Below are positions 2,172 to 10,406 of a stretch of DNA of 64,000 bases, piece by piece. Source of the DNA: a virus (taxonomy: Duplodnaviria; Heunggongvirae; Uroviricota; Caudoviricetes); the IMG/VR virus record IMGVR_UViG_3300022660_000042; one strand, written 5' to 3'. The notes under the pieces are model-generated. The model saw only the letters and a list, made by a program, of their open reading frames with translations, was not told the origin of the DNA and did no database searches. Every line of letters begins with the position of its first letter. Position 1 is the first letter of the stretch. The translations under genes were made by a program, and so were the position numbers.

Positions 2172-2422
2172 TATTTAATCTCTTTTACTTGAACCGTGGC
2201 ATCTATTTCACCAAGAAATAACTCATTCATTGATGCACTATAATATGACTTACTTTTTACACAGTAAGACATCTTACTCTTTGCTGAGCGTAAATCAGCA
2301 AAATGTGTAGCTTGGCTTAAATCAGTTACCCAACTAACATAACCCTTTTTAGAACCCCAATAATAGACTATACCATCAACAGTTCTACAAAGAATCCATG
2401 TTTTTAATTTCGCATTGAACAT
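2171..2422 (-). CDS. hypothetical protein
   Basis: ORF track. Confidence 0.65.
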   Translation of the reverse strand: MFNAKLKTWILCRTVDGIVYYWGSKKGYVSWVTDLSQATHFADLRSAKSKMSYCVKSKSYYSASMNELFLGEIDATVQVKEIK

Positions 2423-2425
2423 TAC

Positions 2426-2884
2426 TTACCATCCATTGGAATGCTTTATTTGCTCATAACGGTCCACAACAGCACTCGTCACTGCTCTTTGTGTACGTTC
2501 ATTTATACCGGATAGAGTCTTCGGTTCGACAATACTGTATTCTCTTGTAGTGTCATTATACCTAAGATTGAGACCCTTGAAAGTCAGGAACCAAGTATCG
2601 TTCGTAACCTCAACGTCGGCCATAGCAACAAGATCCGGGTCGTTAGAGGCCTCACAGAAGTCGAGACGTAAAACCTTGACCTTAATCTGGTCACTCATAG
2701 TTGCCTCCAACTTAGCCTTTGCTTTCTCGCCTTCCAGAGACGTACTGGTCCAGCCACCTTTGTCGTTCAAGTACATGACATTGACACCGGCTGTTGTACT
2801 GTTTGCAATACATGCTTCAAGGTCCTTGTCACCGATATATTCTTTTAACTCTGTGAGTTCATCAATTATTTTACTTATTTTCAT
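2426..2884 (-). CDS. Protein with a possible C-terminal SpoVG-like domain
   Basis: LVAMADVEV..LTFKGLNL..IVEP..INERTQRAVTSAVVDRY resembles the SpoVG pattern. Confidence 0.4.
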   Translation of the reverse strand: MKISKIIDELTELKEYIGDKDLEACIANSTTAGVNVMYLNDKGGWTSTSLEGEKAKAKLEATMSDQIKVKVLRLDFCEASNDPDLVAMADVEVTNDTWFLTFKGLNLRYNDTTREYSIVEPKTLSGINERTQRAVTSAVVDRYEQIKHSNGW

Positions 2885-3183
2885 AATGTATCTCCTTTAG
2901 AAGTTTCAACCATTTGTGCTCGCTTTATGCCAAGAAGCTCTCTATACATCTGAAGCTGGTTCAACTTAAGATTTCTGTTAATACAATCAGAAGAAAGGAC
3001 ATATTCTAGGTCCTTGATTTCATTCTCAAGCCAATGAATTTTCATTTCTTCTGTCTTCAATCTATTTGCATTCATGTCTAGGGTTTCTGTATCAGATTTC
3101 CCTTTTGTTAATTCATTCAAGTATATTTTTTTCATCATGTTATTTATCCTTATTATTGAAAATTCGTCATCATTAACCACCAA
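2881..3183 (-). CDS. hypothetical protein
   Basis: ORF track. Confidence 0.6.
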   Translation of the reverse strand: MVVNDDEFSIIRINNMMKKIYLNELTKGKSDTETLDMNANRLKTEEMKIHWLENEIKDLEYVLSSDCINRNLKLNQLQMYRELLGIKRAQMVETSKGDTL

Positions 3184-3457
3184 GCATCAAACATTCCAAC
3201 GACTTTATGCTAGCCTTTTCAGCATCGGTAAGAGGTTCAAAGTCCTCGTTAAAGTACCGCACTGCGTCACGGATTTTATCCTTGATGTTATCCAGTGCTA
3301 CTTTCCGTGGGTCAATCGGACTTGCCGTCTTATAGCTGATGTCAAGTCGGTCTGACCTATCTACAAGAGACAGTTCTGTAATGTCCATGTCGCCGAAGTG
3401 AGACTCCATTGTGGTGAGTTCATCTATGATGTTTTTCTTGAGTTTACTGATTTGCAT
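3173..3457 (-). CDS. hypothetical protein
   Basis: ORF track. Confidence 0.65.
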   Translation of the reverse strand: MQISKLKKNIIDELTTMESHFGDMDITELSLVDRSDRLDISYKTASPIDPRKVALDNIKDKIRDAVRYFNEDFEPLTDAEKASIKSLECLMLGG

Positions 3458-3626
3458 AATGTTTCTCCTTTGGAATTTTTACCCATTTACCTTTATGCTG
3501 GTCTTCCCAAGCATCCTCGCCAGCATCATAATCCTGCCATTTAAGACCTATATCTGCGGCTGCCTCTTTCATTTCTTGGATAAGGCTTTCCTGCTCTTCA
3601 AGTTTGTCGAGCACATCCTTACACAT
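3444..3626 (-). CDS. hypothetical protein
   Basis: ORF track. Confidence 0.55.
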   Translation of the reverse strand: MCKDVLDKLEEQESLIQEMKEAAADIGLKWQDYDAGEDAWEDQHKGKWVKIPKEKHYANQ

Positions 3627-5348: not shown

Positions 5349-5423
5349 TGGAGGCGATTGGAATTGAACCAATCAAGAGAGGAACATTCTGTGCAAAAGT
5401 TGCGGAAAGTAACCTTTGCCCCC
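5349..5423 (-). ncRNA. tRNA-Ala/tmRNA-like acceptor-T minihelix carrying the repeated structured module
   Basis: GGGGGC/GCCTCC with G3:U70 and A73, T arm ATTGG-TTCAATT-CCAAT; no D or anticodon arm. Confidence 0.7.
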
Positions 5424-5428
5424 ATTAG

Positions 5429-5502
5429 TGGATCCAGTGGTATTCGAAACCACAACCTCCCGCTTGCAGGGCGGGTGCTCTGCCAAATTGAGCTATGAAC
5501 CC
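5429..5502 (-). tRNA. tRNA-Ala(TGC)
   Basis: Cloverleaf, G3:U70. Confidence 0.9.
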
Positions 5503-5509
5503 ATGTTAG

Positions 5510-5582
5510 TAGCGGCGTCGGGAATCGAACCCGAATGCCAGGATTGAAGGTCCCGTGAACTAAGCCGTTATTCTACGTCGCC
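5510..5582 (-). tRNA. tRNA-Glu(TTC)
   Basis: Cloverleaf, loop CC-TTC-AA. Confidence 0.85.
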
Positions 5583-5592
5583 ATAATTTTAG

Positions 5593-5665
5593 TAGTCCTA
5601 TACAGATTCGAACTGTAGTAACTTGGCTGAGAACCAAGTGGCCTTGACCGCTAGCCGATAGAACC
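5593..5665 (-). tRNA. tRNA-Glu(CTC)
   Basis: Cloverleaf, loop TT-CTC-AG. Confidence 0.85.
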
Positions 5666-5672
5666 ATATTAG

Positions 5673-5747
5673 TGCCACCGACAGGGGTCGAACCTGTGAC
5701 GCGAAGATCTTCGGTCTTCCGCTCTACCAAAACTGAGCTACAGTGGC
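5673..5747 (-). tRNA. tRNA-Phe(GAA)
   Basis: Cloverleaf. Confidence 0.9.
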
Positions 5748-5759
5748 ATATATTTTTTA

Positions 5760-5834
5760 TGGACCGTAGGAGGCTCGAACTCCTGACCCCCAGAATGCAA
5801 ATCTGGTGCTCTACCAAAACTGAGCTAACAGCCC
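5760..5834 (-). tRNA. tRNA-Ala(TGC)
   Basis: Cloverleaf, G3:U70. Confidence 0.9.
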
Positions 5835-5884
5835 GAAAATAAAACTGACCTTACTCATCTCAACGCGTACTATTGACTTTCGGT

Positions 5885-5957
5885 AAGCGCATACGGGATT
5901 CGAACCCGTGACCAGCGGCCTTCACACCGCCTGTTCTACCGCCGAACAAAATGCGTT
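5885..5957 (-). tRNA. Degenerate tRNA (His GTG or Phe GAA ambiguous)
   Basis: Good T and D arms; anticodon arm GCGG-TGTGAAGG-CCGC is irregular. Confidence 0.5.
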
Positions 5958-5968
5958 ATCAGTTTTAG

Positions 5969-6042
5969 TGGACACATATGGGATTCGAACCCATGACGTT
6001 TTCCCTGCCAGGGAAACATTCTACCAACTGAATTAATGGCCC
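5969..6042 (-). tRNA. tRNA-Ala(GGC)
   Basis: G3:U70; 1-nt bulge in acceptor; near duplicate of 6137..6210. Confidence 0.85.
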
Positions 6043-6053
6043 ATGATTTTTAG

Positions 6054-6127
6054 TAGCGCTGTCGGGACTCGAACCCGAATTTCCGACTTGAAAGGCCGGT
6101 GAACTGAACCAGTTATTCGACAGCGCC
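6054..6127 (-). tRNA. tRNA-Glu(TTC)
   Basis: Cloverleaf. Confidence 0.9.
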
Positions 6128-6136
6128 GAAATTTAG

Positions 6137-6210
6137 TGGACACATATGGGATTCGAACCCATGACGTTCTGCGTGCAAAGCAGACATTCTACCAACTGAA
6201 TTAATGGCCC
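6137..6210 (-). tRNA. tRNA-Ala(TGC)
   Basis: G3:U70; same body as 5969..6042 with a different anticodon arm. Confidence 0.85.
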
Positions 6211-6711: not shown

Positions 6712-6734
6712 CCCCTTTTTAAAATATTTTTTCG

Positions 6735-6846
6735 TGGGGAAGGCAGGATTCGAACCTACGACACACGCCTTGGAATGGAAATAGGAACGTTATATGCATT
6801 TCTACGAAACGTAAATACCGTTGCTCTACCACTGAGCTACTTCCCC
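6735..6846 (-). tRNA. tRNA-like gene with a 40-nt structured insertion; spliced form would read ACGCC-ATTCCAA-GGCGT (TCC)
   Basis: Perfect acceptor, D and T arms; the insert contains the repeated module. Confidence 0.7.
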
Positions 6847-6918: not shown

Positions 6919-6976
6919 GATGTTAAATATAGTAAAAAGTTGTTGGTTTGTCAACCCCTTTTTAAAATATTTTTAG

Positions 6977-7091
6977 CCGGCGAGACTGGATTCGAACCAA
7001 TAACCCAAAGTACCCTTTAGATAGGAAGCATTGGTGCTGAAAGCGAATACTAAATCTTAAACTTTTGCTCTACCGATTGAGCTACTCGCCG
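6977..7091 (-). tRNA. tRNA-like gene with a 49-nt anticodon loop containing the module; anticodon unresolved
   Basis: CGGCGAG/CTCGCCG acceptor, AAAGT/ACTTT anticodon stem. Confidence 0.7.
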
Positions 7092-7095
7092 AGAT

Positions 7096-7161: not shown

Positions 7162-7201
7162 AGGGTTAAATATAGCAAATTGCTTTGTGTTTGTCAACCG
7201 C

Positions 7202-8539
7202 TTATTGTAACTTTTTTTCCTCCTTCAAGTTTTTTCTGGAACGTTCTTTTTGTTCTTCAAGTAACTTGTTGAAACCGTCAAGGTCAACGGTAAGGTTATG
7301 CTGTTCACAAAGCATTTGTGTCAAGTCGACAGGAAAACCATAAGTATCATAAAGCTTGAAAGAATCAAAACCAGACAATACATTTCCATCCATCTTGGAA
7401 ACAATATTGTTAAACTGCTTGATTCCGCTATCAAGGTTCTTCAAGAATCTTGATTCTTCATTCTTGATAACTTCAGTTACGAATTCTTGTCTTTCCTTAA
7501 TTTCCGGATATACGTCACCCATTACGTCGATAACAACCGGAACGAGCTTATACATAAACGGTTCATTGATATTTAACATCTTGCAGAACAAAGAACCTCT
7601 GCGAAGAAGCCTTCTCAATACATATCCGCTTCCCTTATTAGAAGGCTGAAGTCCGTCAGTAATAGAAAATACAAGAGAACGAATATGGTCACTGATAACC
7701 CTGTGAGGCGTGCCGGATTCATCATTCTTATATTCTACACCGCTAAGTTCAACAATCTTATCAATAAGTGGTTTAAACAAGTCGGTTTCATAATTACCGT
7801 TTGTATTCTGAAGAATAGAACAAATACGTTCAAATCCCATACCGGTGTCGATATTCTTCGTAGTCAACGGAATAAGCGTTCCATCAGAAAGTCTTTCTTT
7901 CTCCATGAATACAATATTCCAGATTTCTACGTAACGGTCATTTTCACCGTTTACACCAAGGATAGGATCCTTGAATGTTTCTTCTTGAGTATTCAAATCG
8001 CCACGGTCATAATGAATTTCAGAACAGGGACCGCATGGACCAGTATCACCCATTTCCCAGAAGTTATCTTTTTCTCCGAATCTCATAATACGGTCATCAG
8101 GTAGATTGGAAACTTCCTTCCAGATTTTCCAACTTTCATCATCGGTCTTATAAACAGAAACAAACAATCTTTCCTTAGGTAACTTCCATACTTTCGTTAA
8201 AAGCTCCCAAGACCAAGAAATAGATTCCTTTTTATAATAGTCATTGAAAGACCAGTTTCCAAGCATTTCAAAGAACGTATGATGATAGTTATCACGACCG
8301 ACAACATCGAGGTCATTATGCTTTCCAGATACACGTAAGCATTTCTGGCTGTTACATACACGTTTTAATCCTTGCGGGTTTTGACCAAAAAAGATTGGTT
8401 TAAACTGGTTCATTCCGGAATTCGTGAATAACAACGTCGGATCGTTATTGGGAATAACGGAAGAAGACTTGATAAACTGATGATTTTTTGACATAAAGAA
8501 ATCAATAAAACTTTTTCTAATTTCGCTCGAGGTAAGCAT
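7202..8539 (-). CDS. alaS: Alanyl-tRNA synthetase, N-terminal aminoacylation domain only (445 aa)
   Basis: DPTLLFTNSGMNQFK, SQKCLRVSGKHNDL, HHTFFEMLGNWSF, DTGMGFERI, FKLYDTYGFPVDLT; stops before the editing domain. Confidence 0.95.
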   Translation of the reverse strand: MLTSSEIRKSFIDFFMSKNHQFIKSSSVIPNNDPTLLFTNSGMNQFKPIFFGQNPQGLKRVCNSQKCLRVSGKHNDLDVVGRDNYHHTFFEMLGNWSFNDYYKKESISWSWELLTKVWKLPKERLFVSVYKTDDESWKIWKEVSNLPDDRIMRFGEKDNFWEMGDTGPCGPCSEIHYDRGDLNTQEETFKDPILGVNGENDRYVEIWNIVFMEKERLSDGTLIPLTTKNIDTGMGFERICSILQNTNGNYETDLFKPLIDKIVELSGVEYKNDESGTPHRVISDHIRSLVFSITDGLQPSNKGSGYVLRRLLRRGSLFCKMLNINEPFMYKLVPVVIDVMGDVYPEIKERQEFVTEVIKNEESRFLKNLDSGIKQFNNIVSKMDGNVLSGFDSFKLYDTYGFPVDLTQMLCEQHNLTVDLDGFNKLLEEQKERSRKNLKEEKKLQ

Positions 8540-8551
8540 TTTTATTCTCCT

Positions 8552-8587
8552 ATAAAAATTAAAAGGTTCCTGTTGTGCACAGGAACC
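8552..8587 (-). terminator. Attenuator terminator 3 (before alaS)
   Basis: GGTTCCTGT-GCACA-ACAGGAACC + TTTTAATTTTT. Confidence 0.85.
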
Positions 8588-8622: not shown

Positions 8623-8682
8623 TTATGTCATAATATATGCGGCTGCTGCGAAAATGCGAGTATTTAATATATTCATCGTCAT
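8623..8682 (-). CDS. Putative alaS leader peptide MTMNILNTRIFAAAAYIMT (not in ORF track)
   Basis: Four tandem Ala codons GCA GCA GCC GCA; lies between a TATATA promoter and the terminator. Confidence 0.8.
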   Translation of the reverse strand: MTMNILNTRIFAAAAYIMT

Positions 8683-8723
8683 GTCTTAAATATATATAAT
8701 TTTTCTATTTTTGTAAATGCTTT

Positions 8724-9146
8724 TTATTCAGGATGTTTGATGTCTTCTATTTCTCGTACCATGTCTCTTTCCGGGCTTTCTGAATTTTCATCCAAATAAC
8801 GACCAGTAAGAATCATAGTATCATGGTCGGTAAATTCAAGATTCGGTTTACCTTCGGCCATATTCTCATAGTCCTCAGTAACAAGGTCTCTCCAAGAAGT
8901 ATAACCGATTTGGTCCCAATTCCTATCGAAGAATTGGACTGCATTAGTTCCAACTTCCTTGGCGACAACTGCACCGAACATTCCATCCTTTCGCATTATA
9001 GATAAACCAGAAATGAATTTACCCTTTTTGGTGGCACAAGAATGCATAATCTTCAACGGCTTATTCTCAAAAACAATTCTAAGCATACCGAAAATATCAA
9101 GTGCCTTTACCGGATGTTCAACAGTTTTAATTTCTGGAAGTTCCAT
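8724..9146 (-). CDS. hypothetical protein
   Basis: ORF track. Confidence 0.7.
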   Translation of the reverse strand: MELPEIKTVEHPVKALDIFGMLRIVFENKPLKIMHSCATKKGKFISGLSIMRKDGMFGAVVAKEVGTNAVQFFDRNWDQIGYTSWRDLVTEDYENMAEGKPNLEFTDHDTMILTGRYLDENSESPERDMVREIEDIKHPE

Positions 9147-9679
9147 TAGTATTCAAGCTCCTCTTTATATCCGGCTAAAAGTTTTGCACGGACTTCATCA
9201 AGAACCTTACCAAGGCGGTTTTCGCCTTTCCAGTTTGCCTCGTCATTAATCAACGGGTCAAATTCACCGAGACCGACACCCCAGATTTTGTCAACCGGAC
9301 TAGCTTCGACGAATTTCTTACCTTCAAGGGCAGGATCCGTAATCTTGTCGAACAGAATCTTATTCTGACTATACTTACTCAAACATGCGTTGAGCATGAT
9401 ATTGTAAGAAATCTTATTCCATTCGTCCTGATTAAAACCTTCGACCATACGGCCAAGCTTCTTGGCCTTATAGGAATCAGCTTCCTTGAAATTAAGAGCT
9501 TCAATTTCATTCAGCGTAGCCATATCGTTAAAACAATATGCCTTATGCCACATATAGCATTGTTCAGAACTGAAAAATTCATGAATCTGCCCGTCAAGAC
9601 ACTTGGTCTTCATCGGTGCCCAAGCGAAATTTGACGGCCAGTCGCCCCAAAATAAAATGTGCTTATCTGTAATTGTCAT
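9146..9679 (-). CDS. NADAR (YbiA-like) family hydrolase
   Basis: SSEQCYMWHKA, AKKLGR, FVEASPVDKIWGVGL; start set to MTITDKHILFW. Confidence 0.9.
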   Translation of the reverse strand: MTITDKHILFWGDWPSNFAWAPMKTKCLDGQIHEFFSSEQCYMWHKAYCFNDMATLNEIEALNFKEADSYKAKKLGRMVEGFNQDEWNKISYNIMLNACLSKYSQNKILFDKITDPALEGKKFVEASPVDKIWGVGLGEFDPLINDEANWKGENRLGKVLDEVRAKLLAGYKEELEY

Positions 9680-9680
9680 A

Positions 9681-10406
9681 TTAAATAAACCAAATAATTG
9701 AAGATTTACCGGATTCTTTAAGTTCAATTTTGTCGTAAACTTTACGTATTCTTGTAATCTGCCAAAGGAATGCATCACATGTTTTGGCGTAATCATTTTC
9801 GTCAATTACATTAGTAAATGGAATAGGCGTTTCCTCAGACAGCTTTACATCTGTAAATTTAGTTTCATCAAGCTTATAGTACCAGGCTGGCATTTTCTTC
9901 AGAAACTTATTAAATGTAAATTCAGAATCCTTATTATAAAGTTTACTATGCAAATACAAATGCAATTCGACCAAATCTTCAATAGAAAGAATGAAACCGG
10001 TATTATACTGTTTTTCGTTTGAAGCTTTTTCGATTATCTTGCATCCACGTTTCTTAAGGAACTTAACAGCTTCCTTTCTTAACATAATGCGGGTAAGCTT
10101 TACAATATAATGCTCGTTGGCCTTGTTTCCAATGACAGGAGAATCTTCCTTGAATAAAGCCATATCGTTGAGCTTTTCAAGTGAATTACAATATACTGTC
10201 ATCGAAAGCTCGTCGTTATACAACTTATCAATCAATGCAAGATAACGTTTAAGCTTTTTGTTTTCGACAATACTATAGAAATCACTACAGTAAATGCCAG
10301 AACCTTCTTCACGAACATTATACATTCTTTGATAGACATAAAACGCCAAAGATTCACGTTGACATTCATAGGTGCTTACTATTCTTGATAGTTCATATTT
10401 TGACAT
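9681..10406 (-). CDS. hypothetical protein
   Basis: ORF track. Confidence 0.7.
   Translation of the reverse strand: MSKYELSRIVSTYECQRESLAFYVYQRMYNVREEGSGIYCSDFYSIVENKKLKRYLALIDKLYNDELSMTVYCNSLEKLNDMALFKEDSPVIGNKANEHYIVKLTRIMLRKEAVKFLKKRGCKIIEKASNEKQYNTGFILSIEDLVELHLYLHSKLYNKDSEFTFNKFLKKMPAWYYKLDETKFTDVKLSEETPIPFTNVIDENDYAKTCDAFLWQITRIRKVYDKIELKESGKSSIIWFI

Follow-up and report, generated by a model that had tools for sequence, protein, structure and literature searches.

A phage alanyl-tRNA synthetase that consists of the aminoacylation domain only

The 64,000-nucleotide stretch of Caudoviricetes DNA analyzed here (the window; from IMG/VR record IMGVR_UViG_3300022660_000042) belongs to one 411,059-bp virus record with a CheckV completeness of 98%, and carries at positions 7202-8539 a gene for a short alanyl-tRNA synthetase (AlaRS), which we refer to as alaS-mini. 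This gene and all other features given below by their window positions lie on the minus strand. The open reading frame (ORF) is intact, with an ATG start, 445 codons, and a TAA stop (7202-7204) that follows the C-terminal protein sequence ...QKERSRKNLKEEKKLQ (KEEKKLQ). A strong sigma-70-like promoter (7169-7197; TTGACA and TATATT 17 nt apart, with a TG, 11 of 12 matches) begins 4 nt past the stop, and the end of the ORF is therefore a real gene boundary. The same promoter is repeated twice further downstream, ahead of tRNA-like genes, and the copy at 7169-7197 drives the next, tRNA-like gene. On the upstream side, alaS-mini is preceded by a promoter-like site (8689-8717; TTTACA, 17 nt, TATATT), a leader ORF of 19 codons, four of which are Ala codons in a row (8623-8682), an intrinsic terminator made up of a G+C-rich hairpin and a T-run (8565-8587), and a ribosome-binding site, AGGAG, with the terminator placed between the leader and the ribosome-binding site.

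An earlier note on the window had described a 445-aa ORF with a clean TAA and a promoter right after it, and had read the product as an AlaRS without its editing domain or its C-Ala domain; the domain scan agrees with that description. Pfam assigned a single family to the protein, tRNA-synt_2c (PF01411), which spans residues 6-443 of the protein and, in the model, positions 1-437 of 552 (E 1e-183; 612 bits vs a cut-off of 30.3). The NCBIfam alaS equivalog TIGR00344 passed its cut-off of 457 with 584.6 bits, with only model positions 1-432 of 847 matched. Neither tRNA_SAD (PF07973), which contains the HxxxH/CxxxH editing site, nor the DHHA1-like domain of C-Ala (PF02272) was detected in the protein by the Pfam scan. 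The protein is made up of catalytic and tRNA-recognition parts only: a class II catalytic domain of about residues 1-245 (7805-8539), delimited by alignment to the E. coli and A. aeolicus structures 3hxu and 1riq, by invariant columns, and by the predicted fold, and a helical tRNA-recognition domain of about residues 246-445 (7205-7804), delimited by the alignments and the model, which ends in a Lys-rich helix. Thus alaS-mini is an intact gene for the AlaRS aminoacylation domain only.

The residues expected in the Ala/ATP pocket are present as R69, W161, N208, V210, D231, and G233 (phage numbering). Except for V210, these are invariant in the alignment of relatives and line up in 3hxu with the equivalents E. 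coli R69, W170, N212, D235, and G237, and V210 corresponds to the Val204 'discriminator' (PMC12143591). A serine-excluding Met at the Methylomonas L219 position was looked for in the alignment by eye and is not in the phage, which keeps Leu (L225) there, as well as Val210 (PMC12143591). In the tRNA-recognition domain, both residues that read the G3:U70 base pair are kept: N301, within PSN, corresponds to E. coli N303, and D398, within YDTYGFP, to E. coli D400, whose roles in G3:U70 reading have been described (PMC10036535). The closest solved structures are themselves fragments, namely A. aeolicus N453 (1riq), E. coli 1-441 (3hxu), and Methylomonas 1-429 (9jc7), all of which align with the phage protein end to end with about 47-50% identity (best E about 1e-144). 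An AlphaFold model of alaS-mini (predicted TM-score 0.78; mean predicted local distance difference test score 73.6), which is of low confidence at residues 23-100 because the alignment was shallow, superimposes on 3hxu with a TM-score of 0.82 over 441 residues, both at full length.

The stop codon is found in independent assemblies. The protein cluster formed at 90% identity has 54 members on contigs of up to 431 kb, and the protein sequence identical to the one encoded in the window is present on 26 contigs of up to 428 kb (JGI, ENA, and Logan). Among the cluster members listed, 13 of 15 are 445 aa long with the same end; the two longer members (P0248 and P0250; 459 and 493 aa) differ only by a frameshift in a seven-A run in the last alaS codons (7208-7222), and the over-long calls run into the promoter and the tRNA-like gene, not into AlaRS sequence. 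Readthrough past the TAA in the window would continue for ~12 codons to the next stop, overlapping the promoter. A diverged relative on an independent Logan contig (L004; 93% DNA identity, as mean column identity over the whole alignment) keeps the same TAA, downstream promoter, leader, terminator, and ribosome-binding site, with the length and Ala run of the leader maintained through synonymous changes and the terminator stem through paired changes. The coding sequences of alaS-mini and this relative differ by 127 synonymous and 34 non-synonymous changes (dS 0.78, dN 0.033, dN/dS 0.042), and the gene is under strong purifying selection.

Because the stop is reproduced in the independent assemblies and in the diverged relative, it is not an error of sequencing, an outcome that the earlier note had named as one that would overturn its reading, and the conserved stop and low dN/dS support its view that this is not a broken longer gene. 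The seven-A run, which led to frameshifted gene calls in two assemblies, is the observation that would favor a decaying remnant, that is, a truncated pseudogene of a captured host alaS, or an assembly artefact. This explanation is largely refuted by the dN/dS of 0.042 at a dS of 0.78, by the same 445-aa product on many contigs from several sources, by the conserved promoter, leader, terminator, and ribosome-binding site, and by the absence of leftover C-terminal AlaRS sequence from the genome, and we regard it as the least probable of those considered here.

The closest full-length proteins to alaS-mini are the AlaRS of Fibrobacter and Fibrobacteraceae (877-910 aa), with 68-70% identity over 99% of the query. 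In the pairwise alignment with the AlaRS of Fibrobacter sp. UWR4, residues 1-440 are collinear at 69% identity with one single-residue gap, and the phage protein has five further residues past residue 440 and then the stop. Beyond the end of the alignment, the Fibrobacter AlaRS (P0124) contains the rest of PF01411, tRNA_SAD (649-696), and DHHA1 (779-873). Compared with the canonical Fibrobacter enzyme, the phage AlaRS is therefore without the beta-barrel linker, tRNA_SAD, and C-Ala (DHHA1), and as judged from the alignment the truncation is a clean one, at the boundary that precedes the editing domain. A quick maximum-likelihood tree placed the phage clade (branch 0.58) beside the Fibrobacteria clade. 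Since the phage clade adjoins the Fibrobacteria and lies outside the genus Fibrobacter, the sequences fit a capture of alaS from a Fibrobacterota host some time ago. The sequencing runs that hold the alaS-mini sequence are labelled feces or gut metagenomes, one of them sheep gut.

The second outcome that the earlier note had named as refuting, a separately encoded editing domain such as AlaX, was not found either. Six-frame profile searches of the 411-kb genome gave no match to tRNA_SAD (AlaX or the editing domain of AlaRS and threonyl-tRNA synthetase, ThrRS) at E ≤ 1, to D-aminoacyl-tRNA deacylase (DTD), or to YbaK/ProX; the controls for the tRNA_SAD, DTD, and YbaK searches were 14 reference genomes, with matches in 14, 10, and 12 of them, respectively. 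When the full-length Fibrobacter AlaRS was searched against the phage genome by tblastn, only the N-terminal 440 residues matched (best other match, E 2.2), and for a remnant of the C-terminal half (P0124 residues 441-877) there were chance matches only (E > 2). By these searches, the phage genome encodes no editing factor. Nine other aminoacyl-tRNA synthetase (aaRS) families (PF00133, PF00749, PF00579, PF00750, PF01406, PF09334, PF00587, PF00152, and PF01409) were negative in the genome as well, and AlaRS is the only aaRS detected in a phage that carries about 48 tRNA genes and a transfer-messenger RNA (tmRNA). No SmpB domain was found in the 411 kb although the phage encodes tmRNA, and the FemAB and aminoacyl-lipid synthase domains, which belong to transferases that use aminoacyl-tRNA, are absent from the genome.

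These searches bear on whether the enzyme might be split, with an unrecognised phage protein providing editing or tRNA binding in trans, like the Nanoarchaeum AlaRS beta subunit or AlaX. A split AlaRS is known in N. equitans (PMC10036535, PMC11392972), and many phage ORFs are without family assignment. However, tRNA_SAD, DTD, and YbaK were not found, the missing half of AlaRS had only chance matches, and the tRNA-recognition domain of the phage enzyme is complete, unlike that of the N. equitans alpha subunit, so that we consider a split enzyme very unlikely.

A viral mini-AlaRS as such is already known, and the phage enzyme is the bacterial-type counterpart of the published Tupanvirus mini-AlaRS (TuAlaRS), of which its authors wrote that they knew no other natural synthetase with the aminoacylation domain only (Antika et al. 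2023, PMC10036535). The two have in common that they are virus-encoded, consist of the aminoacylation domain only, and are related to the host lineage, the phage enzyme being closest to the AlaRS of a presumed Fibrobacter-type host (69-70% identity). TuAlaRS is of the eukaryote type and no longer has the conserved Asn/Asp pair for reading G3:U70, a loss that in the TuAlaRS type goes together with a new mode of binding the acceptor stem. The phage enzyme, in contrast, is of the bacterial type, keeps N301 and D398, is the sole aaRS in its genome, and has an Ala-codon leader and terminator. TuAlaRS charges both tRNA and microhelix (PMC10036535). Among the laboratory fragments, A. aeolicus N453 charges a G3:U70 minihelix (PMC10036535) and Methylomonas AlaRS429 activates Ala and Ser (PMC12143591), and the engineered fragments activate Ala and Ser and charge tRNA or minihelices without editing (PMC10036535, PMC12143591), which agrees with the earlier note's statement that such a fragment charges but cannot edit. 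The engineered fragments (3hxu, 1riq, and 9jc7) have nearly the same boundary as the phage enzyme, whose residue 445 corresponds to about E. coli 446, but are laboratory truncations, whereas the phage form is natural, conserved, and selected. The split AlaRS of N. equitans and the 'small-AlaRS' of CPR/DPANN (bioRxiv 10.1101/2023.05.29.542759) are, like the phage enzyme, natural departures from the four-domain AlaRS layout. The former, however, keeps all domains on two genes, and the phage has no second gene; the latter keeps its editing domain, and the phage enzyme is without one. An alaS2 gene is named as a paralogue in PMC7157823, which states no size for it. Our literature searches returned no paper on a phage AlaRS without the editing domain; aaRS genes in phages are reported in the huge-phage paper, the main text of which gives no domain detail.

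To place alaS-mini among other viral AlaRS we scanned IMG/VR. The scan with the single phage protein as query gave no matches, while 18 loci came from the alignment-based (profile-guided) scan: 13 full-length alaS (872-892 aa), often at viral contig ends, 3 that run off the contig, and only two truncated AlaRS, L018 and L024. L018 (IMGVR_UViG_3300009702_000018, 2208-3512) encodes a 434-aa AlaRS (PF01411 1-433), which ends within five residues of the alaS-mini end point. Its genome is that of a 103-kb phage (28.7% G+C, direct terminal repeats, CheckV completeness estimate 67%) in which no tRNA_SAD and no tRNA or tmRNA genes were found. The apparent start codon of the L018 gene is ATT, with an AAGGAG site 7 nt before it, and the flanking genes encode DNA methylases and a clamp-loader-like ATPase. 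L024 is a 464-aa AlaRS in a giant-virus metagenome-assembled genome, where it adjoins an Asp/Asn/Lys-type synthetase, and has the same layout as TuAlaRS. The nearly identical truncation point in the L018 phage and the giant-virus genome suggests that viruses have shed AlaRS editing repeatedly.

A more distant AlaRS-core ORF of 292 aa was identified in an uncultured huge phage (LR745206.1, 635 kb; L008:3471-4346) and is 28% identical to residues 5-328 of AlaRS. Ahead of it lies a 248-aa ORF, the end of which resembles, by eye, class II synthetase motif 3. Phage AlaRS cores of about 300 aa are older and more diverged than alaS-mini, and most of the tRNA-recognition domain is missing from them as well. 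Other candidates were rejected as phage mini-AlaRS. Three 'Bacteriophage sp.' records among the INPHARED tblastn matches proved on checking to hold full-length or frameshifted alaS, and several further INPHARED matches fall in a Salmonella record or in short records that carry no annotation. P0070 and P0084, two short AlaRS from very long contigs, are not phage genes but bacterial ones, split from the SAD and DHHA1 ORFs next to them.

The surroundings of alaS-mini contain RNAs that carry the alanine identity set. The earlier note had pointed to four tRNA-Ala genes, a G3:U70 minihelix, and a tmRNA, and all of these are present. The four tRNA-Ala genes lie within 5428-6210, about 1-2 kb downstream of alaS, and each has G3:U70 and A73. 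Two with the anticodon UGC (5428-5502 and 5760-5834) have a regular acceptor stem and are likely substrates. The tRNA-Ala(GGC) at 5969-6042 has the top four acceptor pairs, G3:U70 included, and one extra nucleotide lower in the 3' strand, and the tRNA-Ala(UGC) at 6137-6210 shares this irregular stem, again with G3:U70 among the top four pairs, and with A73. These latter two are identical in the acceptor, D arm, and T arm, and the G1-C4 top is intact above the extra nucleotide. A 75-nt anticodon-less tRNA-like RNA, the minihelix (5349-5423; fold z -3.15), and the phage tmRNA (38451-38804; tag ANTYAMAA) also have G3:U70 and A73 and are possible substrates. In total, six phage RNAs carry this identity set, and CCA is encoded in none of them.

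Directly downstream of alaS are two tRNA-shaped genes (6730-6843 and 6975-7092) with a 24-50-nt insert in the anticodon arm, each behind a copy of the same strong promoter, which ARAGORN called with low confidence as intron-bearing Val(TAC) and Cys(ACA). Both have G3:C70 and are for that reason not AlaRS substrates. In a related phage in run X12, a contig joins 6726 directly to 6971 and is thus without one tandem promoter-plus-tRNA-like unit. Two further tRNA-like genes (5885-5957 and 1073-1146) have a six-base anticodon loop, and ARAGORN assigned them no anticodon. Two genes upstream of alaS, at 9146-9805, is a 219-aa NADAR-domain protein (PF08719, E 5e-34), which may be an enzyme that reverses ADP-ribosylation.

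The set of G3:U70 RNAs invites the view that alaS-mini is specialised for alanylation of non-canonical RNAs (tmRNA, the 75-nt minihelix, or the irregular-stem tRNA-Ala), or makes Ala-RNA for a non-decoding process, the elbow-binding C-Ala having been lost. Consistent with this, G3:U70 and A73 are present in tmRNA as well as in the minihelix, the latter has a good predicted fold (z -3.15), AlaRS is the sole aaRS in a genome with about 48 tRNAs, and TuAlaRS charges a microhelix no less well than tRNA (PMC10036535). However, the second phage with a similar mini-AlaRS, L018, has zero tRNA or tmRNA genes, the SmpB, FemAB, and aminoacyl-lipid synthase domains are absent from the 411-kb genome, and the Ala-codon leader links expression to ordinary Ala-codon decoding; on balance such a specialisation appears unlikely. 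The leader also bears on the proposal that the enzyme has left tRNA altogether, with its adenylate-forming site used for acyl or lactyl transfer or for small-molecule synthesis and tRNA charging lost. Lactyltransferase activity has been reported for AlaRS (PMC12143591), and several phage-clade changes are at near-invariant positions. The whole tRNA-recognition domain, Asn301 and Asp398 included, is nevertheless conserved under purifying selection, and alaS sits among tRNA-Ala genes, behind the Ala-codon leader, all of which makes a role apart from tRNA highly improbable.

We therefore favor, with a probability of about three in four, the interpretation that alaS-mini encodes a functional AlaRS without proofreading, reduced to the aminoacylation domain. 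According to this interpretation, alanyl-adenylate would be made in the canonical class II pocket, and Ala would then pass to any acceptor stem in which Asn301 and Asp398 can read G3:U70 and A73. The four phage tRNA-Ala and the host tRNA-Ala are candidate substrates, possibly together with the phage tmRNA and the 75-nt minihelix. The Ala-codon leader peptide and terminator probably turn alaS on when charged tRNA-Ala is scarce, such that the enzyme would raise alanylation capacity during infection under the control of the speed at which Ala codons are read. Bacterial C-Ala mediates dimerisation and binds the tRNA elbow (PMC10036535), and because it is missing here, the phage AlaRS should be a monomer that relies on the acceptor stem alone. 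Without an editing domain, the enzyme would not hydrolyze Ser- or Gly-tRNA-Ala, and such mischarging would be either tolerated in infection or cleared in trans by the host full-length AlaRS and DTD.

Five Fibrobacter and Fibrobacteraceae genomes were used to gauge what a host of this kind could offer for such clearing. Full-length AlaRS is present in these genomes and DTD in 4 of the 5, and DTD clears Gly-tRNA-Ala (PMC5409826). The tRNA_SAD domain occurred in the five genomes only in AlaRS-sized frames (881-907 aa) and in two others, 566 and 674 aa long, that we take to be ThrRS, and no free-standing AlaX was seen in these genomes. Since there is no free-standing AlaX, clearing of Ser-tRNA-Ala would have to come from host AlaRS, and that of Gly-tRNA-Ala from AlaRS or DTD.

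Several points weigh against this interpretation. In the phage clade, 13 substitutions have become fixed at sites with a conservation of at least 97% among 231 bacterial relatives, and these include R304S, 3 residues after N301, and Q213E, 3 residues after V210. Deletion of C-Ala cuts the tRNA affinity of E. coli AlaRS up to about 13-fold (PMC10036535), which makes the charging efficiency of the phage enzyme uncertain. The quick tree does not nest the phage clade inside the genus Fibrobacter, the Fibrobacterota host is deduced from AlaRS similarity and habitat only, and trans-editing of the errors of the phage enzyme by the host is assumed. Contigs assembled from the RNA libraries of three studies cover parts of alaS at a low depth (4-8); we did not count these as evidence of transcription, as a contig reveals neither strand nor level and does not exclude DNA carry-over.

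A more elaborate scheme would make alaS-mini part of a phage-private alanylation circuit, in which an acceptor-stem-only charger co-evolved with the six G3:U70 RNAs under an Ala-codon attenuator switch, and clade substitutions near the pocket, such as Q213E, partly replace proofreading through serine rejection at activation. We offer this scheme as a speculative one with a low probability.

AlaRS is considered to have a four-domain layout, and above all an editing activity toward Ser- and Gly-tRNA-Ala, in almost all organisms. The phage AlaRS allows a direct comparison with its full-length relative from Fibrobacter (69% identity) and thus amounts to a natural experiment on what a cell or virus can do without AlaRS proofreading, whether a host edits in trans, and how the loss of C-Ala is compensated. 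The setting is unusually informative, in that this AlaRS is the sole aaRS of the phage, occurs together with the phage's own G3:U70 RNAs, and has an Ala leader upstream, and the phage itself supplies candidate cognate RNAs for assays, among them tRNA-Ala variants, a tmRNA, and a minihelix.

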